In this document: one piece after another, positions 9,405 through 62,570 of the stretch | How positions within the stretch are numbered: position 1 is the first letter of the stretch | How the letters are laid out: each line of letters opens with the position of its first letter | NCBI GenBank assembly: GCA_016432365.1 | Contig: CP066686.1 | Coordinates: 793,501-857,500 of the forward strand | Origin: Candidatus Woesebacteria bacterium | GTDB lineage: Bacteria > Patescibacteriota > Microgenomatia > UBA8517 | DNA length: 64,000 nucleotides | Direction: 5' to 3' | Notes under the pieces: generated by a model | Seen by the model: the letters and a program-made list of their open reading frames with translations, nothing else | Databases searched by the model: none | What the model was told of the DNA's origin: nothing | Made by a program: the position numbers and the translations under genes

Positions 9405-9451
9405 GTGACTGCCAATTGTTAATTCTTAATTATTAATTTATAATTGAGCCT

Positions 9452-9610
9452 ATGGTTCCATTACCAAAGAGAAAACATACAAGAAGTAGAACCGGAATCA
9501 GACGTGGAGGACAACCTAAAATGGTTCTTTCGAACCTAACAAAGTGCACCAGTTGTGGAAAATTGAAGGAAAATCACCGCGCATGCCCATATTGTGGCTT
9601 CTGGCGTTAA
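9452..9610 (+). CDS. rpmF: 50S ribosomal protein L32
   Basis: [52 protein letters not shown]. Below the 60-aa cutoff of the ORF track; Cys4 zinc ribbon. Confidence 0.75.
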
Positions 9611-9659
9611 TCCCTCTTGTCACTTGTCTCTTGTCGCTTGCCACTCTATACTAAATTCG

Positions 9660-10034
9660 ATGAAAACATCAACCGACCCCAGGCATATCAGAAGAAGAGA
9701 GGCCGTTAAATCTCTTTTTGCCGAAACCTTTGCCAAGCAACCGGAAAATGGCGAAATGGTAATAAAAATCCTTGGCCAAAAAGAGAAAATTGACAAATTG
9801 ATTAGCGACGCGGCCCCTCAGTGGCCAATAGACAAACTCAACAAAATTGATTTGGCAATTTTGAGGCTTGCCGTCTACGAACTTGAGAACGAGGATACAC
9901 CTCCTAAAGTTGTAATAGACGAGGCTGTGGAACTCGCCAAAGAATACGGTGCGGAATCTTCATCTTCTTTTATCAACGGAGTATTGGGTACAATATATAA
10001 AGACGAAACTGACGCAAAATCAGCAAAAGAATAA
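9660..10034 (+). CDS. nusB: transcription antitermination factor NusB
   Basis: [11 protein letters not shown]...[11 protein letters not shown]...ELAKEYG. Start taken at MKTST rather than the upstream ORF-track start. Confidence 0.8.
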
Positions 10035-13647: not shown

Positions 13648-13700
13648 TTGAGCAGTTAAACCAGTATACTAGATACCAGCTACCAGTTGCTAGATACTAA

Positions 13701-21342: not shown

Positions 21343-21882
21343 CTAATAACTTCTCAATTGAATTTGTGTACTTGAAGATATGGCTGTTGTTTGAGAACCT
21401 GTTCCGGCAGCGCTTTGCATTTCAAGAAAAACACTAACCGTAGGTGGGTTGGCTGCCGTGCCCGGAGCACATGTAAAATTACATGCTGTAACAAGCACAT
21501 CATCGGGTGTTAGTCTTCCTGAGCCGGAGGCAACGTAAGGGTCTGCCCCACTCATATTTATGCACGAAAATGAGGTTGCATCTCCGTTTTGATCAGTATA
21601 ATTTAAAATATGGTTATCGGTATTGGTGGCACAGTCGGGGACTGAGTTAGCATTTCTAATCTGGCGTTCTATAATACTCATGGTATAACCTAGGTTTTCA
21701 CTAACTTTTGTCTGAGCCTCGCTTTTCTTGCTTCCCTGTAAAGACAAAATAATTGAACCTGTAACAATGAGTCCTAAAAAAGCGAACAGTGTGACAACAA
21801 TCAAGATCTCAAGAAGCGACATCCCCTCCCAATTTTTGATTTTTGATTTTTGATTTTTGACTTTCATCATCTTTGTCTCCAA
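21343..21882 (-). CDS. type IV pilin-like protein (prepilin; real start probably 21870)
   Basis: Leader MMKVKNQKSKIKNWEG, then MSLLEILIVVTLFAFLG with Glu+5. The leader is encoded by a (TTTTTGA)x4 repeat. Confidence 0.7.
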   Translation of the reverse strand: METKMMKVKNQKSKIKNWEGMSLLEILIVVTLFAFLGLIVTGSIILSLQGSKKSEAQTKVSENLGYTMSIIERQIRNANSVPDCATNTDNHILNYTDQNGDATSFSCINMSGADPYVASGSGRLTPDDVLVTACNFTCAPGTAANPPTVSVFLEMQSAAGTGSQTTAISSSTQIQLRSY

Positions 21883-22320: not shown

Positions 22321-22872
22321 TCATTTGATCTCGCCTGACGAAGTTATAGTTATTACGAATGTGTTACTTATTCCCACCTGACTTACCGTAATTGTTGACT
22401 CTGCTCCGCTTACAAGGTTGGTTCCATGTCCCAATACTTTGAACTCAATTGGGTTGGGGGCAGGTGTTGAAAGAGTCATTCCGCTAGGTAAGTCAACTGT
22501 TTTAACTACAACTGAACCACCGGTGCAGTTTGCGGCTACAGAATATTGAGATGAACTATTAACTGTAAATATATATCCACCCAGACTATTCGGCGGGTTA
22601 CATTTTGCATCCAACGGTTTTTGCCCGGACAACGCCTGCTGTTGGGCGAGTCTCAGATCCCCCTGAATTACTTTCGCAATTCCGCTGACTGCCTGGCGTC
22701 TCGAAAAATCCCTGAAGCTTGCAAACCCAAAACCAAAAAGCATTCCTATGATTGTTAAACCCACAAGAACTTCAATCAGAGTGTAGCCAGAAACTTTTGA
22801 CTTTTGCATTTTGCATTTTGACTTAAACATCAGGGATTTGTTACTTTGTAGTTGCATGTTGCTGCTCCACAA
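22321..22872 (-). CDS. type IV pilin-like protein (real start probably 22830)
   Basis: Leader MFKSKCKMQKSKVSG, then YTLIEVLVGLTIIGMLFG. Confidence 0.7.
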   Translation of the reverse strand: MWSSNMQLQSNKSLMFKSKCKMQKSKVSGYTLIEVLVGLTIIGMLFGFGFASFRDFSRRQAVSGIAKVIQGDLRLAQQQALSGQKPLDAKCNPPNSLGGYIFTVNSSSQYSVAANCTGGSVVVKTVDLPSGMTLSTPAPNPIEFKVLGHGTNLVSGAESTITVSQVGISNTFVITITSSGEIK

Positions 22873-23318
22873 GAAGTGGCCGCAACAACCCCACAGGAAG
22901 TAGTAGCTCCACCTTGTTCAAGAGCTGCACACAGTTCGTATGTAGAACCGTCTAATGAATAATACTTGTAATCACTGTTGGGAGAAGTAGGGTCAAACGG
23001 AACCTCAGAAAGATAGATGTTGGTATCTAAACAAGAGGAAGTAGAAAGTCCGTCACCTTTAAGCTGCGCTCCAAGTGTCAATGGGTACTTATTACAATCA
23101 GCCTTATATATTTCGACAGCACTTCTTATTTGTTCCAGATCGGTCTTTCTTTTTGCGTCCCTGGCCGACTGTCTGGCACCCTGAAGTCCAAAAACGGAAA
23201 GGCCGATAAGAATTCCTATTATGGAAATCGTCACCAGAAGTTCGATCAAGGTAAATCCATCAGATTCGTTGTCTTCCCTTCTTTTCGACCTTTTTTGCAC
23301 TCTCAATTCATAATTCAT
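22830..23318 (-). CDS. type IV pilin-like protein
   Basis: Leader ...RREDNESDG, then FTLIELLVTISIIGILIG. C-terminal Cys pairs. Confidence 0.7.
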   Translation of the reverse strand: MNYELRVQKRSKRREDNESDGFTLIELLVTISIIGILIGLSVFGLQGARQSARDAKRKTDLEQIRSAVEIYKADCNKYPLTLGAQLKGDGLSTSSCLDTNIYLSEVPFDPTSPNSDYKYYSLDGSTYELCAALEQGGATTSCGVVAATSCGAATCNYKVTNP

Positions 23319-23334
23319 AATTCAATATTCAATT

Positions 23335-23847
23335 TTAGAGAGGGCATACCCCTCCTACCGGCAAATTCCAACTCGCCGTATCAATTGTTCCGACTTTTCC
23401 CCCTGAACAAATAACCCAATATTTATCGGAGCTCTCCAACTTATCCCACAAAACATATTGAGTTCCCAGTGCCGTTCCGTCCGAAGCAGTTCCATCTGAT
23501 TGATATTTATAAACGAAAAGACCTGTGGTGTCATTTACGCTTGGATCGGCAGGACAACCTGTCATAGACAAATCTGTACAGAGTGTGGTAGCTGCTCCCA
23601 CTCCTGAAGCATCCGGGCGTGATGGATAAAAAGTGTTATTTTTATTAGCGTAACTTTCCAGCGAACTTTGAAATTGTTTGATGTCTGATTTTCGTTGTGT
23701 GTCCCTCGCTTGGCGCTGAGCCGTGGTAAACGAAGCCAGTGATAGGGCAGCCAAAATTCCTATTATAGAAATCACGACCAAAAGTTCGATTAGTGTGAAG
23801 CCAAAACTTTTCGCTTTTCGCTCTTCGTTTTTCGTTATTGATATCAT
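23335..23847 (-). CDS. type IV pilin-like protein
   Basis: MISITKNEERKAKSFG, then FTLIELLVVISIIGILAA. Confidence 0.7.
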   Translation of the reverse strand: MISITKNEERKAKSFGFTLIELLVVISIIGILAALSLASFTTAQRQARDTQRKSDIKQFQSSLESYANKNNTFYPSRPDASGVGAATTLCTDLSMTGCPADPSVNDTTGLFVYKYQSDGTASDGTALGTQYVLWDKLESSDKYWVICSGGKVGTIDTASWNLPVGGVCPL

Positions 23848-26114: not shown

Positions 26115-26143
26115 TGGCAAGCATAGAATTCCTATATACCGAA

Positions 26144-26183
26144 CTCAAAACATAAAGTTGTAAAACCGTCATTTTGTTTTGAG
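26144..26183 (-). promoter_or_regulatory. inverted repeat (9-bp arms, 22-nt loop) just after the pilD stop
   Basis: CTCAAAACA...TGTTTTGAG. Confidence 0.3.
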
Positions 26184-26187
26184 TTTG

Positions 26188-26940
26188 CTATAAACCTAAA
26201 AATATTAATAACTCATGACCAAATAAAAGAGTAAATAAAAGTCCGATTACCAAAAACGGTCCGAATGCTATTTGATCCTTTAGTCTTGCTCGACCACCTA
26301 GAATTAGTATGATTCCGGCGATTCCTCCTGTCAAGAAAGATAAAAAAAGCCATATAAGACTCAGCTTTAGTCCGATTAGAAGTCCACCAAAAACAGCAAA
26401 TTTTACATCACCTAGGCCCATGCCACGGCCACGGGTAAAAATGTGAATTAACAACAGTAAAAACGCTGAACCGAATCCGGCAAAAATATTTGGATACAAA
26501 ATTCGGCTATCTGTTAAAAACAGAAAAAGAAAGATCAAAAGAACTCCTAAAAAAACAAAATAATCCGGAATGATTTTATGCTCAAAATCAATTATAAAAA
26601 TCAAAATCAAAATTGAAAAAACAGAAAGTGAGTAGAGAAGTAAGAAAATGTTCATATTAAAAAGGTTAAACAAACACAAAAAGCCTAGGGCAGTAAATGC
26701 TTCAATTAAAGGATATCGGAATGAAATGTGTTTCTTACAATTTCTACATTTTCCACCTAAAAATAAATAAGAAAGTAGGGGAATATTGTCGTACCAAAAA
26801 ATTTGTTTCTTACAACTGTCACAAAAGGAACGACCCTTAGCGTTGGAAATTCCACGGGGATAACGCCACGAAAATGCTGCATAGAAAGATCCAAATACTA
26901 AACCGAGTAAAATAAACAACAATTGTTGAAGCAATATCAT
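26188..26940 (-). CDS. pilD: prepilin peptidase (A24 family, PilD)
   Basis: Zinc-binding Cys pairs (CDSCKKQ, CRNCKK), a multi-TM core and the GDVKF-type Asp motif. Confidence 0.8.
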   Translation of the reverse strand: MILLQQLLFILLGLVFGSFYAAFSWRYPRGISNAKGRSFCDSCKKQIFWYDNIPLLSYLFLGGKCRNCKKHISFRYPLIEAFTALGFLCLFNLFNMNIFLLLYSLSVFSILILIFIIDFEHKIIPDYFVFLGVLLIFLFLFLTDSRILYPNIFAGFGSAFLLLLIHIFTRGRGMGLGDVKFAVFGGLLIGLKLSLIWLFLSFLTGGIAGIILILGGRARLKDQIAFGPFLVIGLLFTLLFGHELLIFLGL

Positions 26941-29724: not shown

Positions 29725-30229
29725 AATGAACGACTTCAAAACATACACAGATTACAAGACAGTCCTTTCCGTAAACGCCTTAATTTTTTCCGAAGGCAAA
29801 ATTTTAATGCTTAAAAGAGCGGATGACAAAAAAATTGATCCCGGACTTTATTCCGGGATTGGCGGAAAAGTAGAACCTCACGAAAGTTTTTATAATGCAA
29901 TTCTTCGTGAAATCAAGGAAGAAACAGGTTTGACAGAATTTAAATCAATAAAACCTTATTCGGTTACTCAAATCCCGTACCCACCCACGGACTCTGAATG
30001 GGTAAATGTCTATTTTATTGTCCATATTACGAAACAGGTTGAATTAGAACCAACTGAGGACGGTACATTTCATTGGGTAGGCATCGAAGAAGCCTTAAAA
30101 CTACCAACACCGAACGATGTCCACGATTACCTGGAGATTCTTTCTAAAGACCCCAACGCCTTCATTTTTGGTTTTTATGACCACGACAAGGAAGGAAACC
30201 TAACAAACAAAAAAATTAAAGTTGTCTAA
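29699..30229 (+). CDS. NUDIX hydrolase
   Basis: Nudix box GIGGKVEPHESFYNAILREIKEETGL. Confidence 0.7.
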   Translation: MTGKTLLLKMNDFKTYTDYKTVLSVNALIFSEGKILMLKRADDKKIDPGLYSGIGGKVEPHESFYNAILREIKEETGLTEFKSIKPYSVTQIPYPPTDSEWVNVYFIVHITKQVELEPTEDGTFHWVGIEEALKLPTPNDVHDYLEILSKDPNAFIFGFYDHDKEGNLTNKKIKVV

Positions 30230-31431
30230 AAAGAACTTGTTAAATTGTAAATCGGAAGAATAACAGCAATAACTAAAAATCCAACCCCAAGCCCTAGCAT
30301 TATCATAACCAATGGTTCTATTGCAGCTGTCAAGCCTTTTACCTTCTCGTCGCTTTCCATTTCAAAAATGTGGCTGATTTTGGTTAAAACATCGTCCATT
30401 TTTCCCGTTTCTTCACCCACCGCAATCATCTGAGAAAGTAAAAAGGGGAAAGCCTCGGGGTGCCTTGCAAAGGAAAAGGCGATAGGGAAACCCTTCTCCA
30501 CCTGTCTGGAAACATCTTTTAATGCATCGGAGATGACACTATTTGATACAACTTCACTTGTAATGTTCAAGGCCTCAAGAATTGGAACACCGGCCCCCAC
30601 CATTAAAGACAGGGTTCTTGTAAGTTCTGTCAAAATTACTTGTTTTTGCAGGTTCCCGAAAATAGGAATTTTAAAAACCATTTCATCGACTTTTTTCTTT
30701 CCCATTGCGGTGCTCCTGTAAAGTGTAAACAAATAGTAACCAACACCTCCGATTGCTAAAATGACAAACCAGTAATTAACAAAAAAACCGGAAATTCCCA
30801 TTAAAATTCGCGTAGGTAAGGGGAGTGTGGCATTAAAATCACCATAAAGCGAAGTCAGTTTGGGAATAACAAAAATCATCATTATAAAAACAACTACAAC
30901 CATACCTACCCCGATTATCGCAGGGTAAATTAAAGCCCCTTTAACTTTACCGTTAAATTCTTGCTGCTTTTCCAGGGTATCTGCCAATCTAAGAAGCACG
31001 GCATCCATAACACCCCCGACCTCACCCGATTTAACCAAGGATAAATAAGTTCTGGTAAAAATTTTGGGGTGTTTATTCATGGCACTCGAAAGAGATTCTC
31101 CGGCTTCAACATCCGCCAAAATCTGGGCAACAACTTTTTGCATAGCCCCATTGCTTTGAGATCTAAGTATTAGAAGTGCTTCCGTGATGGGTAGCCCGGC
31201 TCCGATCATTGTTGAAAGCTGACGGGTGAAAGTTGAAATGTCCCCTGTTGTTATCCGTTCTTTGAATTTCTTTACAATCGAAAATGGTGAATCCATTTTC
31301 TCGGAAATAGAAATAACATAAAAGCCCTTGCCCCGAACCAGTTTTGCCGCATGGCTCGTGTCACTCGCCTCGACTTCTCCTGACACCAATCTTCCTTGTC
31401 TGTCTTTGGCCTTGTAATTAAATCTTTTCAT
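30226..31431 (-). CDS. pilC: type IV pilus inner-membrane platform protein PilC (GspF family)
   Basis: Duplicated GspF domains and three TM helices. Downstream of pilB and pilT. Confidence 0.8.
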   Translation of the reverse strand: MKRFNYKAKDRQGRLVSGEVEASDTSHAAKLVRGKGFYVISISEKMDSPFSIVKKFKERITTGDISTFTRQLSTMIGAGLPITEALLILRSQSNGAMQKVVAQILADVEAGESLSSAMNKHPKIFTRTYLSLVKSGEVGGVMDAVLLRLADTLEKQQEFNGKVKGALIYPAIIGVGMVVVVFIMMIFVIPKLTSLYGDFNATLPLPTRILMGISGFFVNYWFVILAIGGVGYYLFTLYRSTAMGKKKVDEMVFKIPIFGNLQKQVILTELTRTLSLMVGAGVPILEALNITSEVVSNSVISDALKDVSRQVEKGFPIAFSFARHPEAFPFLLSQMIAVGEETGKMDDVLTKISHIFEMESDEKVKGLTAAIEPLVMIMLGLGVGFLVIAVILPIYNLTSSF

Positions 31432-31443
31432 GCAGAAGTTTTT

Positions 31444-32502
31444 TTAAACACCTCGTACTAAACGCGCAAGCTCTTCGGGTCTTAACGACCAACTCTGGGC
31501 AACTTCCATAGTTACCAGACCACGTTTTACAAGATCTGCCAGGGAACGCTCAAGAGTGCTCATTCCGGCTTCCTGTGAAGTTTCCAAAATGCTTTCGATC
31601 TGGTGAGTTTTACCTTCACGGATAGAAGTTTTTATAGCTGTGGTCCCCAACATTATCTCGTAAGTAACAACCCTGCCTTTGGTTGTAGAAGGGATTAGTC
31701 TTTGGGAAAAAACCGCCTCAATTACATTTGATAGCTGAAGCTTTACCTGCCCCTGCTGTTCTTCAGGGAAAACATCGACGATTCTGTCGATTGTTTGGGC
31801 GGCACTATTTGTATGAAGAGTAGCAAAAACCAAATGGCCTGTTTCTGCAACTGTTAATGCAGCTGCAATTGTTTCGTAATCACGCATCTCTCCAACCAAA
31901 ACCACATCCGGATCTTCTCTCAGTGCGGACCTTAAAGCTATTTCCCACGAATGTGTATCTGTTTGCATCTCGCGTTGAGAAATGACCGATTTAATCGGCT
32001 TAAAAATAAACTCAATCGGGTCTTCGATGGTTACGATGTGAGATGTGCGGGTTTCGTTAATTTCATCTATCATTGCCGCAAGGGTAGTTGATTTTCCATG
32101 CCCTGTTGGCCCGGTCACAAGAACCAACCCCTGCCTTAACGTCGTAAAAGAATGAAGAATTTTAGGTAGTCCCAAAGCATCTATTTTTGGAATTGTCAAA
32201 GGAATCTGTCTAAAAGCAACTGCTGTAGTGTTTTTCTGGGTATAGGCATTGGCTCTAAACCTGGCCTTATCGGAGAATGGTAAAGAAAAATCAAGTTCCT
32301 TGTTCACGGTTAACCTTTCGATTTGTTCGCTTGTAAGAACTTGTTTAAGAAGTTCGTTGATAGAATCCGGTGTAGAAATACCGGCTCCGGGCGCACTTAA
32401 CAATTCCCCATCCACCCTTAGAGTAGGGGGGACTCCGGCAACCAAATGCAAATCACTGGCTTTCAAGTCAATTGTTTGTTGTAATAATTGTTTGATGTCC
32501 AT
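31444..32502 (-). CDS. pilT: twitching-motility retraction ATPase PilT
   Basis: Walker A GPTGHGKSTT, Asp box, and AIRNLIRE-like TSIREGKTHQI. Length 352 aa. Confidence 0.8.
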   Translation of the reverse strand: MDIKQLLQQTIDLKASDLHLVAGVPPTLRVDGELLSAPGAGISTPDSINELLKQVLTSEQIERLTVNKELDFSLPFSDKARFRANAYTQKNTTAVAFRQIPLTIPKIDALGLPKILHSFTTLRQGLVLVTGPTGHGKSTTLAAMIDEINETRTSHIVTIEDPIEFIFKPIKSVISQREMQTDTHSWEIALRSALREDPDVVLVGEMRDYETIAAALTVAETGHLVFATLHTNSAAQTIDRIVDVFPEEQQGQVKLQLSNVIEAVFSQRLIPSTTKGRVVTYEIMLGTTAIKTSIREGKTHQIESILETSQEAGMSTLERSLADLVKRGLVTMEVAQSWSLRPEELARLVRGV

Positions 32503-32513
32503 AGTTAAACAGT

Positions 32514-32600
32514 CAAAAGGTAAAAGTTAAAAGGTAAAAGTTTCAGAAATTTTTGAATTTTGATTTGTAATTTTGAATTTTGCATTTTGAATTTTGAATT
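32514..32600. repeat. tandem repeats: 2x14-nt AAAAGGTAAAAGTT, then ~7 copies of heptamer TTTGAAT
   Basis: Read directly from the pilB-pilT intergenic sequence. Confidence 0.7.
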
Positions 32601-34344
32601 ACTCTTGTGCAACTCTCAGTATCTCTTCCACTGTAGTGATTCCTTCAGCAACCTTCAAGTACCCATCCTGTTTAAGTGATACCATTCCTGCCTCTCTCGC
32701 TGCATTGTCTATATCTCCGGCCGAGGCCCGTTCCAAAATAAGTTTACCAATTTTTTCTGTTACCGTGATAGTCTCAAAAATACCCATTCTTCCCAAATAA
32801 CCCGAGTTTCCGCAATCCGGGTCCCCCTTACCTCTATAAAGTTTGACCTCTCCCTGTGGCTGCCAAAGACTACCCAATTCTTTCTTCATCTCGCTTACAA
32901 TTTTAGGGTCTGGAACATAACTTTCTTTACAATCGTCATGGATTTTTCTGACAACTCTTTGGGCAACAAGACAGGTAATAGAGGAGGCCAATAAGTACGG
33001 TTCCGCGCCCATGTCTAAAAGCCTGGGTAGTGCACCTGAAGCATCATTTGTATGAAGTGTAGAAAATACCAAATGTCCGGTTAACGAAGCCTGAATGGCA
33101 AGATCCGCAGTTTCGCTGTCGCGGATTTCTCCTACAAGAATAATGTTTGGGTCCTGTCTAAGAAATGATTTCAATCCGTCGGCAAATGTGAGCCCAACAG
33201 CAGTGTTGATTTGGACCTGATTGACGCCGGGGATTTTGTATTCGATCGGGTCTTCCAATGTAACTATGTTGACTTTTGGAGTATTTAGTCTGGATAAAAC
33301 AGAATACAAAGTGGTCGTCTTTCCGGAACCCGTTGGTCCACAAATTAAAATAATTCCATGCGGACGCAAAATTGCATCCTGAAGATCTTTAAGACTTTTA
33401 CCCCTAAGGCCCAATTCCTGAAGCGTAGGGACTCCCCCGGATTTTTTGAGTAAACGCATCACAATTTTTTCTCCCCAAGTTGTGGGCAGAGAAGAGATAC
33501 GAAGGTCTACTTCTTCCTCACTACCTTTAAAGTTGAATCTACCGTCCTGGGGAACTCTTTTTTCGTCAATTTTCATCCCTCCCAAAATTTTGATTCTGCT
33601 TATTAATGAATCGTGCAGTTCCTGCGGAATTGTGAGCTTCTCCTGTAAAATTCCGTCAATTCGATAGCGAACTCGGGTTGACTTTTCTTCGGGCTCAATG
33701 TGAACATCGCTGGCCCTTGATTTAATAGCAAAGTCGAGTATTTGGGATACAATTTCTGCTATTTTTTCTTCTCTTATAAATCCGCCTCTGGAAACTTCGG
33801 CAGCTTTAATTCCTTCTCCTTTTCCTCCGGGTGTAACTTCTTTCATTGCAGCCGTAACCTGTTTGGTTAATGAGGTTGTATAGCGGGTTTGAATAAAATC
33901 GTCCACTTTCATGGGCTCCGCCGCGTAAGTTTTTACATGGAGACCTGTTTTTTGTTCGATAAATTCTATAGCCGCAAGATCCAGAGGATCAGCCATGGCA
34001 AGGCCCAAACTTTTTTCTTTTTTATCGTAATTAACAGGGAAAACTCTAAATCTTTCTGCGACCTCCGAGGGGAGTGCTGCTAAGGCATTGGGGTCAATCG
34101 GAGCAGTGTTTAAATCAACATATGGGATGTTATAGAGTTGGGCTTTAGCTTGAACAAGTTTATCTTCAGGAACCATCGAGGCCTCTTTAATAATGTCTTC
34201 CTGTGTTTTACCGCTTTGAATTTCGGTGAACTTTACCTGTTCGGCACGCCGTGCATCGAGTGCCCCCAAAGTCACTAAAATATCAGCAAGAGTTCCGGTG
34301 GAGTTTAAACTATTAGTACCGTTTACAGGTTGAGCAGTGGGCAT
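32599..34344 (-). CDS. pilB: type IV pilus assembly ATPase PilB (GspE family)
   Basis: N1/N2 domains and Walker A GPTGSGKTTTLY. No tetracysteine motif found. Length 581 aa. Confidence 0.85.
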   Translation of the reverse strand: MPTAQPVNGTNSLNSTGTLADILVTLGALDARRAEQVKFTEIQSGKTQEDIIKEASMVPEDKLVQAKAQLYNIPYVDLNTAPIDPNALAALPSEVAERFRVFPVNYDKKEKSLGLAMADPLDLAAIEFIEQKTGLHVKTYAAEPMKVDDFIQTRYTTSLTKQVTAAMKEVTPGGKGEGIKAAEVSRGGFIREEKIAEIVSQILDFAIKSRASDVHIEPEEKSTRVRYRIDGILQEKLTIPQELHDSLISRIKILGGMKIDEKRVPQDGRFNFKGSEEEVDLRISSLPTTWGEKIVMRLLKKSGGVPTLQELGLRGKSLKDLQDAILRPHGIILICGPTGSGKTTTLYSVLSRLNTPKVNIVTLEDPIEYKIPGVNQVQINTAVGLTFADGLKSFLRQDPNIILVGEIRDSETADLAIQASLTGHLVFSTLHTNDASGALPRLLDMGAEPYLLASSITCLVAQRVVRKIHDDCKESYVPDPKIVSEMKKELGSLWQPQGEVKLYRGKGDPDCGNSGYLGRMGIFETITVTEKIGKLILERASAGDIDNAAREAGMVSLKQDGYLKVAEGITTVEEILRVAQE

Positions 34345-34463: not shown

Positions 34464-36999
<2,536 letters not shown>

Positions 37000-45942: not shown

Positions 45943-46133
45943 ATAACTATAAAAACAGAGATTTGACGGCCTAAAGCCATCGAATAATGCTAGCCAGCTC
46001 CTCTGTTTTTTTTGTTTTAGTATCTCCCCATTGCTTCATAAATATTGTTGAGGTAGAATCATTTAAGGCTAATTGAGCCTGTTTTTTATGTTCGTAATTA
46101 TTAATTCTTAGTTATTAATTCTTAATTTAGCTT

Positions 46134-48761
46134 ATGGATATCGGTAAAATTCAACAAACAGAGATAACCAGCGAACTTTCTAAATCATATTTGGATTATG
46201 CAATGAGCGTTATCGTCGCCCGGGCCTTGCCGGATGTACGGGACGGACTTAAGCCGGTTCACAGGAGAATTTTATATGCAATGCATTTGATGGGACTTCA
46301 TTTCGTGGGTTCTTCCACAACAAAATCCGCCAAGGTCGTTGGAGAAGTTTTAGGAAAATATCATCCACATGGAGACATGGCAGTCTACGACGCGATGGTC
46401 CGACTTGCCCAAACTTTTTCCATGCGTTATCCCTTAGTCCACGGTCAGGGAAACTTTGGATCCGTTGACGGCGATCCTCCCGCAGCCATGCGTTACACCG
46501 AGGTTAAACTCGCAAAAATAGCAGACATGATGCTTGCGGACATGGAAAAAGAAACCGTCGATTTTACGGACAACTTTGATGCAACACTTAAAGAACCTGT
46601 TTTCCTTCCCGCAGTTTTACCCAATTTGCTTCTTATGGGAAGCGAGGGAATTGCGGTGGGAATGGCTACAAAAATTCCCCCTCATAATTTAACTGAATTG
46701 GTTGATGGCATAACCGCTATGATCAAAAAAGGTAAGGTTATAACTGAGCAAAAGGCGCAGGAAGAACAAACCGATTTTGTCATCAAAAAGATTAATTTGG
46801 TAGCTTCGGGTGAGGCCAAAGCATTAACCGAAGAAGAAGTTAACCCAACAGCAGTCTCTTTTGAAAGCGAAATAGATATCGACGAACTAACCAACATTAT
46901 ACCCGGACCTGATTTCCCAACAGGCGGTGCGATTTACGATGCCAACGGACTAAAAGAACTTTACGCTACAGGGCGCGGCAAAATAGTTGTCAGGGGAATT
47001 GCAGAAATTGTAGAGGGTGCTAAAGGCAAGCAGCAAATAATAATCAGCGAGCTTCCATATCAAGTAAATAAGAGTGAACTTGTAGCCAAAATCGCCGAAC
47101 TCGTAAAAGATAAAAAGGTTGTAGGAATTGCAGATCTAAGAGATGAAAGCGACAAAGACGGTATGAGGGTAGCGATAGACCTCAAACGCGATGCAAAACC
47201 AAAATCCGTTTTGAATAATATTTTCAAACACACCAGACTTCAAAGCAGTTTCCCTGCAAATTTTGTGGCACTTGTTGACGGCACCCCCCACACATTAAAT
47301 CTCAAAACAATTCTTGTTGAATACGTTAAACACAGACAAAGAGTTGTTATAAGGCGCACTATTTTTGAATTGACCGAAGCCAAAAAACGCGCTCATATTT
47401 TGGAGGGGCTTAAAATCGCACTAGACAATTTAGATGCAGTAATCAAAACCATCAGAGAAAGTAAGACTCAGGAGGATGCCAAGAAAAACTTAATTGAAAG
47501 GTTTAAGCTGTCCGAAATCCAGGCAACTGCAATCCTTGATATGCAGCTTAGAAGGTTGGCTGCACTTGAGAGAGAAAAGATTGAAAAAGAATATGCTGAA
47601 ATCAAGAAACTGATAGATCAACTTGTTGCAATTTTGAAAGACCCCAAACAGGTTTTGAATATTATTGTTAAAGAGCTGGGAGAGCTAAAAGAAAAATACG
47701 GAGACGAAAGAAGAACCAAAATCTACAAAAACCCGCTAGGGGAAATCAGCGAAGAAGATTTAGTTGCTAAAGAGGAAACGTTAATCACCGTTACAAAAAC
47801 CGGCTATGTTAAACGGCTTTCGGCAACAAGTTACCGCGCGCAGCGTCGGGGTGGTAAGGGTGTAATCGGAATGGCAACAAAGGAGGAGGATGAAATAGAA
47901 CACATTTTATCCGCCACCACTCACGACACGATATTATTCTTTACCAACAAAGGCCGTGTTTTCGGGCTAAAAGCATGGGAAATTCCGGAAAGCAGTAGAC
48001 AGGCAAAGGGACAAGCTCTTGTCAATTTGTTGAATCTTGAACAGGGCGAAGAAATAAAATCTATTCTTCCGCTTTCTAAAGAACTCGGAATCAAAAATTT
48101 GGTAATGGCCACCAAAAACGGACTTATTAAAAAGACCGGCATTGACGAATTTGAAAACTTAAGAGCGTCCGGGCTTATTGCAATTAAACTCAGAGACAAC
48201 GACATGCTTATTTCGGTTCATCCGACAACGGGGGATGACCACATCATTCTTCTTACAAGTAATGCAAAATCAATAAGATTCCCGGAGTCAAATGCCAGAC
48301 CCATGGGCCGTGCCACAACCGGGGTAACGGGAATAAAAATGGATGCAGGAGATGAGTTGATTGGAATGGAAGTGTTCCCGACAAAAGAAAATATCCCAAC
48401 CGATAAAAGGAAAAAATTCTACCGCGACATTTTGACTATCGCCGAACACGGACTTGGGAAGCGTACCCCAATCAATCTTTTCCCTGTACAAAAAAGATCA
48501 GGTAAGGGTGTTAAGGCGGCGGTGGTTTCGGCAAAAACAGGGAATCTAAAAACTGCCGCGATGGTCACTGAAAAATTTGATCAGGTGATAATTACTTCAA
48601 AAATGGGGCAGGTGATTAAACTGCCATTGAAAAATATTCCCCAACTTGGAAGAGCTACACAAGGAGTAATACTTATGCGTTTTGCAGATAAAGCAGATTC
48701 GGTTGCGGCTGCTGCGGTTTTAGAAAAAGGAGTGGATGACGAAGAAGAAGAGGAGGGTTAA
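46134..48761 (+). CDS. gyrA: DNA gyrase subunit A
   Basis: [24 protein letters not shown], active-site Tyr region (AMRYTE), and a beta-pinwheel C-terminal domain ending in an acidic tail. Confidence 0.9.
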
Positions 48762-61802: not shown

Positions 61803-61841
61803 CTAGTATCTAGCTACTAGTTACTAGATACTAGTAGCTAG
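61803..61841. promoter_or_regulatory. CTAG-rich quasi-palindromic motif TAGTATCTAGCTACTAGTTACTAGATACTAGTAGCTAG
   Basis: Lies between the yebC stop and the membrane-protein start. Matches the motif upstream of pilM (13663-13699) at 21 of 24 positions. Confidence 0.45.
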
Positions 61842-62570
61842 TTTATTCATTACTTCATCCGGAATTTCGACATTGGTAAAAACCTTTTGAACATCTTCAA
61901 GCTCGTCCAGTGCATCTAAAAACTTGACCACTTTTGATGCTTGATTGGGATCAGAGATTGCTTGTAAGTTCTTAGGTTTCATCTGAAGCTCAACTTGAGT
62001 GATTTCAAAACCTTTGGCCAATAGATCTTTGTGGATCTCACCAAGTTTTTCAGGGGCAGTATAAACCTCAATACCATCTTCAGTTTCATTAACATCTTCT
62101 ACCCCACCTTCAATTAAAGATAACATTTCGCCCTCCGGGTCGTCGGTTTTTTTAACAAGCATAAAACCCTTGCTCTCAAAATTAAACGAAACCGCCCCAG
62201 GCCCGGCTAGGTTTCCCCCATTTTTATCAAAAACATTTTTCATCTCTTGAGCTGTTCTATTTTTATTATCACTTGCAACATTAACCATAACAGAAATTCC
62301 TGCAGGCCCATAACCTTCGTACATAATTTCTTCCAAACTGGCGGCGTCTGTGGTAGCTTTAGCTATTGCGCGGTCGATATTTTCCCTCGGCATACTCACG
62401 GCCCTGGCTTTATCAATTTCAAATCTTAACTTGAAGTTCATGTCGGGGTCTGCTCCACCTTTGGCCGCTATCATAATTGCACGAGCCATTTTGCTAAAAA
62501 CATTTCCCTTAGCCGCATCGTTTATGGCCTTCTGTCTTTTAATGGTGGCGAAGTGACTATGACCGCTCAT
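61824..62570 (-). CDS. yebC: YebC/PmpR-family transcriptional regulator
   Basis: MSGHSHFATIKRQK...KGGADPDMNFKLR. Start trimmed to the family-typical MSGHS, whereas the ORF track extends to 62717. Confidence 0.8.
   Translation of the reverse strand: MSGHSHFATIKRQKAINDAAKGNVFSKMARAIMIAAKGGADPDMNFKLRFEIDKARAVSMPRENIDRAIAKATTDAASLEEIMYEGYGPAGISVMVNVASDNKNRTAQEMKNVFDKNGGNLAGPGAVSFNFESKGFMLVKKTDDPEGEMLSLIEGGVEDVNETEDGIEVYTAPEKLGEIHKDLLAKGFEITQVELQMKPKNLQAISDPNQASKVVKFLDALDELEDVQKVFTNVEIPDEVMNKLATSI

Follow-up and report, generated by a model that had tools for sequence, protein, structure and literature searches.

Simple sequence repeats (SSRs) with a seven-nucleotide unit are known from several groups of bacteria, and here we compare the described systems with a repeat in a Candidatus Woesebacteria bacterium of the candidate phyla radiation (CPR). 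The stretch analysed (GenBank assembly GCA_016432365.1, contig CP066686.1, positions 793,501 to 857,500; 64,000 nt, hereafter the window) carries a (TTTTTGA)x4 tract at 21833-21860 in the predicted leader of a minor pilin gene (open reading frame (ORF) 21343-21870, minus strand), which the initial annotation proposed as a candidate slipped-strand phase-variation switch. The presence in a pilin gene of a perfect repeat whose unit is not a triplet is insufficient to call phase variation, and the comparative data favour a microsatellite locked in frame. Among translated heptamer tracts at the 5' end of a gene, the closest mechanistic parallel is the poly-psi motif of neuO in E. coli K1, an AAGACTC variable number tandem repeat (VNTR) near the start of the coding sequence (Deszo et al. 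2005, following the description in PMC3046976). Both genes have a heptamer repeat a few codons past the start, give a full-length product only at every third copy number, and encode with three units a hydrophilic basic heptad (RLKTQDS in neuO, SKIKNQK here) in a disordered N-terminal extension. neuO, which is ON at multiples of three, differs in carrying 2-93 copies and in having documented high-frequency switching with OFF alleles in isolates, whereas the window tract has 4 copies, no OFF allele was seen in its relatives, and there is no sequence relationship between the two; the neuO heptads remain part of the mature enzyme, which they make more active, whereas the peptide of the window pilin is expected to be cleaved off.

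Heptamer tracts also lie at surface-protein genes of Haemophilus influenzae, namely TGAAAGA upstream of hmw1A/hmw2A and AACAACC near or inside the ORF of a TonB-dependent receptor gene, the latter with 1-13 units between strains (PMC2651432). The hmw tracts differ from ours in having 13-38 copies about 100 bp upstream of the gene, where they modulate transcription, and strain variation in H. influenzae includes frame-disrupting numbers, of which none was seen in the class of arrays found in the window (PMC2651432).

For the non-coding arrays that accompany the tract, we would place nearest the TAACTGA repeats, the cyanobacterial short tandemly repeated repetitive (STRR) sequences and the G-rich heptamers of Xanthomonas and Nostoc. 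The first, known from marine Beggiatoaceae, cyanobacteria and Bacteroidetes, are 2-6 tandem heptamers that mostly end up no more than a few nucleotides upstream of starts (MacGregor 2015, PMC4679880); ribosomal-protein genes are among their sites, which matches the window arrays at rpmF, nusB, gyrA and pilT (PMC4679880). They differ in using one conserved unit genome-wide, against 86 units here, where a large share of the arrays falls within pilin leader codons. The STRR sequences and the GGGAATC / GGGGA(T/C)T repeats of Xanthomonas and Nostoc are lineage-specific excesses of intergenic heptamers that vary in length and sequence between close relatives, with polymerase slippage as their proposed origin (Rehm et al. 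2015, PMC4692102, citing Mazel et al. 1990 and Mrazek et al. 2007). Those repeats are G-rich, of few unit types, up to tens of copies long and non-coding (PMC4692102), whereas the window's lineage has short, AT-rich arrays that come in many unit types and often code for leader peptides. A heptanucleotide SSR in a 5' coding region is thus of an already known kind and brings no new mechanism. We found no description of such arrays in Patescibacteria in the searchable literature, and the crowding of heptamer arrays at start codons and their building of pilin leaders across a CPR lineage appear to be previously undescribed.

The tract and the leader it encodes

As the initial annotation had it, plus-strand positions 21833-21860 are exactly (TTTTTGA)x4, or (TCAAAAA)x4 on the coding strand, where the context reads GGAGACAAAG ATG ATG AAA G (TCAAAAA)x4 TTGGGAGGGG ATG TCG CTT CTT GAG. 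The coding strand continues TTGGG after the fourth unit, the uninterrupted periodic run being 29 nt, and Tandem Repeats Finder (TRF) extends the tract to 21832-21864 (period 7, 4.7 copies, 96% matches). In 100 dinucleotide-preserving shuffles the expected count of the 28-mer was 0.00, even with three mismatches permitted. The pilin ORF starts in an ATGA overlap, its ATG sharing bases with the stop codon of the gene before it. The unit is free of stop codons in all three frames and, over three copies, encodes the Lys-rich heptad SKIKNQK; when we replaced the tract in silico with 0-8 units, full-length products resulted only for n = 1, 4 and 7 (168, 175 and 182 aa), and every other number led to termination after 13-29 codons, so that gain or loss of one unit does frameshift the pilin, as had been claimed. 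We dropped programmed ribosomal or transcriptional slippage on the A-runs; such slippage needs an X XXY YYZ pattern or an A-run of 8 or more, and the A5 runs of the tract fit neither.

The product begins with a 16-residue leader, MMKVKNQKSKIKNWEG, followed by MSLLEILIVVTLFAFLGLIV, with the predicted cleavage site at G/MSLLEIL (the slash marks the cut). It has the features of a class III signal peptide, namely a short basic leader, Gly-1, a hydrophobic residue at +1, Glu+5 and about 20 hydrophobic residues. The 77 homologues we collected are conserved from G/MSLLEIL onward, with Gly-1, Leu+3 and Glu+5 invariant or nearly so in the 74 that were aligned, and the stretch preceding the Gly, 3 to about 25 residues long, allows no alignment. 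Pfam gave no match for the window pilin; in NCBIfam the XpsH, ComGE and GspJ models all matched below threshold, starting at residues 12-16, that is, at the cleavage site, and PF07963 is present in many of the orthologues. Since conservation starts at G/MSLLEIL and the NCBIfam matches begin there too, the repeat is predicted to encode the class III signal-peptide leader of a minor pilin, a leader that the prepilin peptidase is expected to cleave. Nine pilin-like genes, with this one in last place, form a cluster downstream of a prepilin peptidase gene, and the cluster adjoins genes for PilB-like and PilT-like ATPases, PilC and PilM, a type IV pilus operon (PilB/T/C/D/M) that places the tract in a surface gene. 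The window pilin is 100% identical to a protein of a metagenome-assembled genome (MAG) at NCBI (P0001, on a 1.08-Mb contig); exact-protein look-ups with the 175-aa window pilin, the 150-aa product of the gene upstream of it and the hypothetical leaderless form of 159 aa returned no record and no alternative allele.

Repeat number among relatives and in the source population

Scanning species-representative genomes with the pilin-family alignment gave 51 loci, nearly all from Woesebacteria, Microgenomates and unclassified Patescibacteria. The leader flanks align across species, and the relative L005, whose pilin is 68% identical, reads ATGAAAA TCAAAAA TTGTGAAGGAATG and a second, L071, reads ATGACAAAAAACAA TCAAAAA GGTATG, each with one unit. 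Because the window has four units between the flanks it shares with L005 and L071, the tract is, by this alignment, a 21-nt expansion from one unit to four. A difference of exactly three units in another heptamer separates L070 from L069, which are 86% identical in the mature coding part: CAAATTC AGATTCC AAATTCC AGATTCC AGATTCT GAATTCT stands against CAAGTTC AGATTCT GAATTCC, and with this step the leader changes from MGNKKEQIQIPNSRFQILNSG to MVYKKKQVQILNSG. Where mature pilins cluster at 90% identity or more, some leaders are long and array-built and others as short as MREKG, and arrays at orthologous leaders have been gained, lost and replaced between close relatives. Other arrays have stayed as they were: the CGAAAAN array has four units in the window and in its closest relative, L004; ten L005-species contigs, which come from at least 8 samples, show no indel over up to 20 kb, in the arrays or elsewhere; and the protein whose orthologous leader is made by a perfect (AATTTAC)4.3 array is the same on 15 contigs. 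The differences in repeat number seen between close relatives are of exactly three units, and no out-of-frame number was seen.

The search for out-of-frame (OFF) alleles covered 515 pilin-like genes. The genome loci hold 301 of them, 43 with an array in or beside the leader and all 43 with an in-frame start; 80 metagenome loci hold a further 214, of which 19 have arrays, again all 19 in frame. Hence none of the pilin genes with arrays (0 of 62) was OFF in the related genomes or the metagenomes. In well-studied contingency loci a sizeable share of the alleles in sequenced genomes are out of frame. The window tract thus shares with neuO a repeat with a non-triplet unit inside the 5' coding region, but between-strain variation that includes OFF alleles was not found among its relatives.

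Several candidate OFF alleles were examined and rejected. Two relatives annotated as leaderless, P0002 (MLEIL...) and P0099 (MSLLEVL...), have an intact in-frame leader in their DNA and are gene-caller artefacts; array leaders with no ATG (L032, L083, L105, L042) hide no frameshift, three having GTGA-overlap starts and one a plausible TTG start; and length differences among L005-L014 (150 vs 134 aa etc.) are caller differences on identical DNA, the neighbour of pilin H being called there as 150, 139 or 134 aa. Callers also disagree in the window, where nusB (9594-10034) was called from GTG 9594 through an array rather than from ATG 9660. Such disagreement at array sites bears on gene-start annotation in CPR MAGs. 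Five pilin-like ORFs in the genome loci, none of them array-bearing, have no in-frame ATG, GTG or TTG start (L036 6684-6710, L037 4536-4580, L045 4549-4596, L049 4672-4716, L059 2374-2406), and their open frames (INIK.../IKIK.../TKIK.../GIIN...) hint at non-canonical ATT or ATA start codons.

The source organism itself is present at 100% identity in three Logan runs, SRR12113419, SRR12113420 and SRR12113421. In the last of these, contig L066 (window 26119-21832) ends ...AAAG(TCAAAAA)4T and contig L001 (window 21861-9493) begins G(TCAAAAA)4TT; the two overlap inside the array by 30 nt (k-1 with k = 31), and the break falls between the adjacent 31-mers AG(TCAAAAA)4T and G(TCAAAAA)4TT. The 4-unit allele alone cannot make a graph loop because its perfect run of 29 nt is shorter than k-1, and a break at this place therefore implies a second successor k-mer, G(TCAAAAA)4TC, from a tract of five or more units. 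The break fits a minority allele of at least five units in the population and is the sole positive hint of heterogeneity, an indirect one. Possible sources of the branch are such an allele, stutter in the library or in sequencing, or an array of the same unit elsewhere in the community, an example of the last being the AATCAAA x4.1 array in an unrelated pilin gene of L099, where it encodes the leader MKNQKSKIKRAG. Contigs L066 and L001 run unbroken through the three imperfect pilin arrays. Joint Genome Institute (JGI) metagenomes, scanned for the sequence that flanks the array on the right, yielded 0 matches, the organism not being in that collection. We also noticed that Logan contigs L002 and L003, from two runs, both end at 26163 and that L066 starts at 26119, in the intergenic region downstream of pilD; no long contig carries the intervening 43 nt, on whose flanks stand two hairpin-like inverted repeats, and this suggests a segment that is polymorphic or otherwise breaks the graph in this population.

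Period-7 arrays across the lineage and the readings of the tract

The 51 loci together with the window and two syntenic contigs (0.92 Mb) contain 69 non-redundant period-7 arrays against 1.0 in shuffles, an excess of about 70-fold; period-14 arrays number 41 against 7.7, and there are 3 and 4 arrays of periods 6 and 8. Arrays are absent from 18 of 53 related loci. The interval from -40 to +75 nt of a predicted start holds 63% of the 113 arrays of period 7, 14 or 21 (background 17.5%), gene interiors hold 27% (background 77%), and a prepilin cleavage motif follows within at most 120 nt in 45 of the 113. Array-bearing leaders have a median length of 18 aa, against 10 aa for array-free ones. The arrays are short (median 4.3 units or 30 nt, maximum 7.3 units, longest perfect run 35 nt) and AT-rich, with a sense strand that is A-rich and poor in G and C. 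Periodicity across about 1,065 starts shows, in the 45 nt that precede them, a bump at lags 7 and 14 (0.290/0.287 vs about 0.275), which is stronger in the window alone (0.306) and absent from gene interiors. When the metagenome loci are added, 137 period-7 arrays use 86 distinct canonical units, a diversity that rules out a single repeat family or binding motif and is not the genome-wide use of one or a few conserved units known from the TAACTGA and STRR repeats. Identical units do recur across pilin paralogues and organisms (L099 959-1021, L015 9969-9998, L061 7546-7575, L141 1380-1409), and AATTTAC arrays encode KFTIYNLQFT in three loci. The wider pattern, then, is a heptamer-array excess in a CPR lineage that builds the cleaved leaders of about one eighth of pilin genes, and it bears both on how replication slippage shapes tiny genomes and on the role of heptamer repeats upstream of bacterial start codons, as in Beggiatoaceae and cyanobacteria.

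The reading we favour, with a probability of about 0.6, is that the tract is a slippage-born microsatellite tolerated in a cleaved leader, frameshift-prone and kept in frame by selection. Replication slippage would have grown a single ancestral TCAAAAA to four units (+21 nt), making this a young heptanucleotide microsatellite; heptamer SSRs are over-represented in bacteria, and polymerase slippage has been proposed as the cause (PMC4692102). A leader may require as little as a start codon, some positive charge and Gly-1, and because it needs so little, an A-rich, stop-free heptamer would be tolerated in a peptide that the prepilin peptidase would then remove. Short (3-7 copy) AT-rich period-7 arrays would accumulate in Woesebacteria and Microgenomates near gene 5' ends under weak constraint, that is, in intercistronic spacers, just upstream of start codons and in pilin leaders. 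Slips of one or two units would give null alleles of the minor pilin, perhaps transient, that selection removes, and only three-unit (21 nt, 7 aa) steps would be seen between relatives because the out-of-frame ones are lost. The anatomy of the tract, the enrichment across the lineage, the in-frame state and the three-unit steps are observed; that slippage generated the tract, that leader length is close to neutral and that out-of-frame slips are mutational load, not a programmed switch, is what we infer. Several observations weigh against this account. By a rough estimate the density of arrays per nucleotide is several-fold higher in pilin leaders than in ordinary intergenic DNA, which pure neutrality does not readily explain; the array upstream of pilM has the same place and the same five units in the window as in L005, two species with only 68% identity in pilin H; starts stand directly behind arrays with no visible Shine-Dalgarno sequence; the Logan contig break exactly at the array fits real length heterogeneity, a first step towards a switch; and minority OFF alleles are invisible in consensus assemblies.

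The proposal of the initial annotation, developed into a contingency locus in which slipped-strand mispairing switches a minor pilin (perhaps the three neighbouring pilins as well) and so varies the pilus tip or initiation complex of an episymbiotic CPR bacterium, seems doubtful to us, and it takes as a premise that the organism is host-associated, an assumption of that annotation. What stands of it is a perfect 5' coding tract in a surface gene, with a unit not divisible by 3 and an ON state only at n = 1, 4 and 7, in an operon where 4 of 9 pilin genes bear arrays; the contig break implies a competing k-mer, and the neuO heptanucleotide VNTR (PMC3046976) and the heptanucleotide SSRs of H. influenzae (PMC2651432) are precedents. 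What does not stand is the switching itself: none of the 62 array-bearing genes is OFF, the apparently leaderless forms are gene-caller artefacts, relatives differ by three-unit steps, arrays are identical in the ten contigs of the related species, the (AATTTAC)4.3 leader protein is unchanged on 15 contigs, and the branch may come from PCR or sequencing stutter or from a same-unit array such as that of L099. The tract is also short, with 4 units against 13-38 at hmw and up to 93 in neuO. Arrays of the same class precede rpmF, nusB and gyrA, genes that are essential in model bacteria, and on/off variation of these is implausible because they are essential. The switch claim is accordingly plausible in principle and unsupported in practice.

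A different possibility, which we think quite unlikely, is that the arrays are functional 5' mRNA or DNA elements whose copy number tunes expression with no switching, the array in the pilin leader merely happening to be translated; they might be A/U-rich landing pads for Shine-Dalgarno-independent ribosome binding, binding sites for S1 or Csp proteins, or promoter or spacer elements. Arrays end 3-19 nt before the ATGs of rpmF, nusB, gyrA, pilT and the DUF5656 gene, which have no obvious Shine-Dalgarno sequence, and their 3-4 fold enrichment around starts, the lag-7/14 bump confined to the upstream regions, the A-rich sense strand and the conserved array at pilM all suit such a role, for which a like idea has been proposed for the Beggiatoaceae TAACTGA repeats (PMC4679880). 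Yet the 86 units exclude one sequence-specific binder, RNA folding of nine translation-initiation regions (z-scores -1.0 to +1.2) revealed neither special structure nor a special lack of it, leader arrays come, go and are replaced between close relatives, 18 of 53 related loci have none, and in compact genomes start-proximal largely equals non-coding. An undescribed selected system of 5' heptamer arrays in Woesebacteria and Microgenomates, whose members in pilin operons would be tunable or stochastic elements with copy number setting translation or leader processing and with rare one-unit slips silencing minor pilins, is likewise a tentative idea that we consider improbable; if true, selected arrays would give ultra-small episymbionts population-level diversity of their attachment pili. 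A chance match or an assembly artefact is scarcely credible, given the shuffle expectation of 0.00 and the occurrence of the 4-unit sequence both in the NCBI MAG (P0001) and in independent Logan contigs.

Arrays and neighbouring genes in the window

TRF lists 13 rows of period 7 in the window, seven of period 14 and one of period 21, with at most 7 for any other period; of the perfect runs with at least 2.4 copies, six have period 7, periods 5 and 6 contribute two apiece, and periods 8-12 are not represented. The imperfect heptamer run reported for the leader of pilin 22321-22830 and the run said to straddle the start codon of pilin 22830-23318 both recur in the TRF output, and to these the present analysis adds a fourth pilin-leader array and about eight arrays outside pilin genes that the initial annotation did not mention (Table 1). 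A start-proximal intergenic position is seen at rpmF, nusB, gyrA, pilT, pilM and the DUF5656 gene, while the array at 21833-21860 is itself translated. Both a prepilin peptidase and assembly ATPases are encoded beside the pilin genes.

Table 1. Heptamer arrays of the window and the pilus genes discussed with them, in window coordinates
Feature	Position	Strand	Remarks
Perfect (TCAAAAA)x4 array	21833..21860	-	codons 4-13 of ORF 21343-21870; encodes KNQKSKIKN
Leader-coding region, MMKVKNQKSKIKNWEG	21823..21870	-	ends with Gly-1 of the predicted prepilin cleavage site
Predicted mature minor pilin/pseudopilin, MSLLEILIV..., Glu at +5	21343..21822	-	weak GspJ/XpsH/ComGE-like N-terminus
Imperfect array GTCAAAA/TGCAAAA, 4.6 copies, 84% matches	22793..22824	-	leader MFKSKCKMQKSKVSG of GspH-like pilin 22321-22830
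Array TGAATAT TGAATTA TGAATTA TGAATTG	23305..23331	-	spans ATG (23318) of GspG-like pilin 22830-23318
Array CGAAAAA CGAAGAG CGAAAAG CGAAAAG (CGAAAAN x4)	23807..23834	-	leader MISITKNEERKAKSFG of pilin 23335-23847
Prepilin peptidase (A24_N_bact + Peptidase_A24)	26188..26940	-	expected to remove the leader; from domain matches
T2SSE ATPases	31444-32502 and 32599-34344		assembly ATPases
Array AATTGTT AATTCTT AATTATT AATTTAT AATT	9414..9445	+	6 nt before ATG of rpmF (ribosomal protein L32, 9452-9610)
Array CTCTTGT CACTTGT CTCTTGT CGCTTGC	9614..9645	+	between rpmF stop and nusB ATG (9660)
Array TAGTATC TAGCAAC TGGTAGC TGGTATC TAGTATA	13661..13699	-	fills spacer upstream of pilM ATG (13647)
Array ACTTTTA/CCTTTTA, 5.6 copies	32503..32542	-	directly upstream of ATG (32502) of PilT-like ATPase gene
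Array AATTCAA, 7.3 copies	32551..32600	-	longest in the window; starts at stop codon of pilB (32599-34344)
Array TATCAAA, 5 copies	34781..34814	+	inside coding sequence of holB-like ORF
Array TTCTTAA/TTATTAA, 5.3 copies	46091..46127	+	6 nt before ATG of gyrA (46134-48761)
Array CTAGTAN, about 5.8 copies	61803..61842	-	3 nt before ATG (61799) of DUF5656 gene

Some smaller observations concern these genes and their relatives. An imperfect hexamer, ATTTTG in about 5 copies (26582-26613, minus strand), lies inside the pilD coding sequence, where its unit length preserves the frame. In the leaders at L004 7570-7650 (pilin D) and L061 8499-8630 the prepilin N-terminus is duplicated in degenerate form, MNKLARGFTLIRTLRRKNLFTVQQG/FTLIELL, giving two cleavage-like motifs in tandem. 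A Y1_Tnp gene (IS200/IS605-like or RAYT-like) stands beside the pilus genes in L004 (2003-2689), L005 (597-1289) and L070 (4166-4846); the window has no such gene at the equivalent position, which lies between pilC (30226-31431) and a NUDIX gene. L070 1778-2500 encodes a 240-aa product with Pfam matches to both GIY-YIG endonuclease and N_methyl (pilin), which may reflect the fusion of a homing-endonuclease-like domain to a pilin gene or its insertion into one. In the holB-like ORF (34464-35081, plus strand) the DNA_pol3_delta2 match covers only profile positions 81-159 and the heptamer array comes right after an SRC motif; a degenerate array, TTAGTTA CTGGTTA TTCGATA TTAGTTA, lies directly upstream of the ATG of this ORF.

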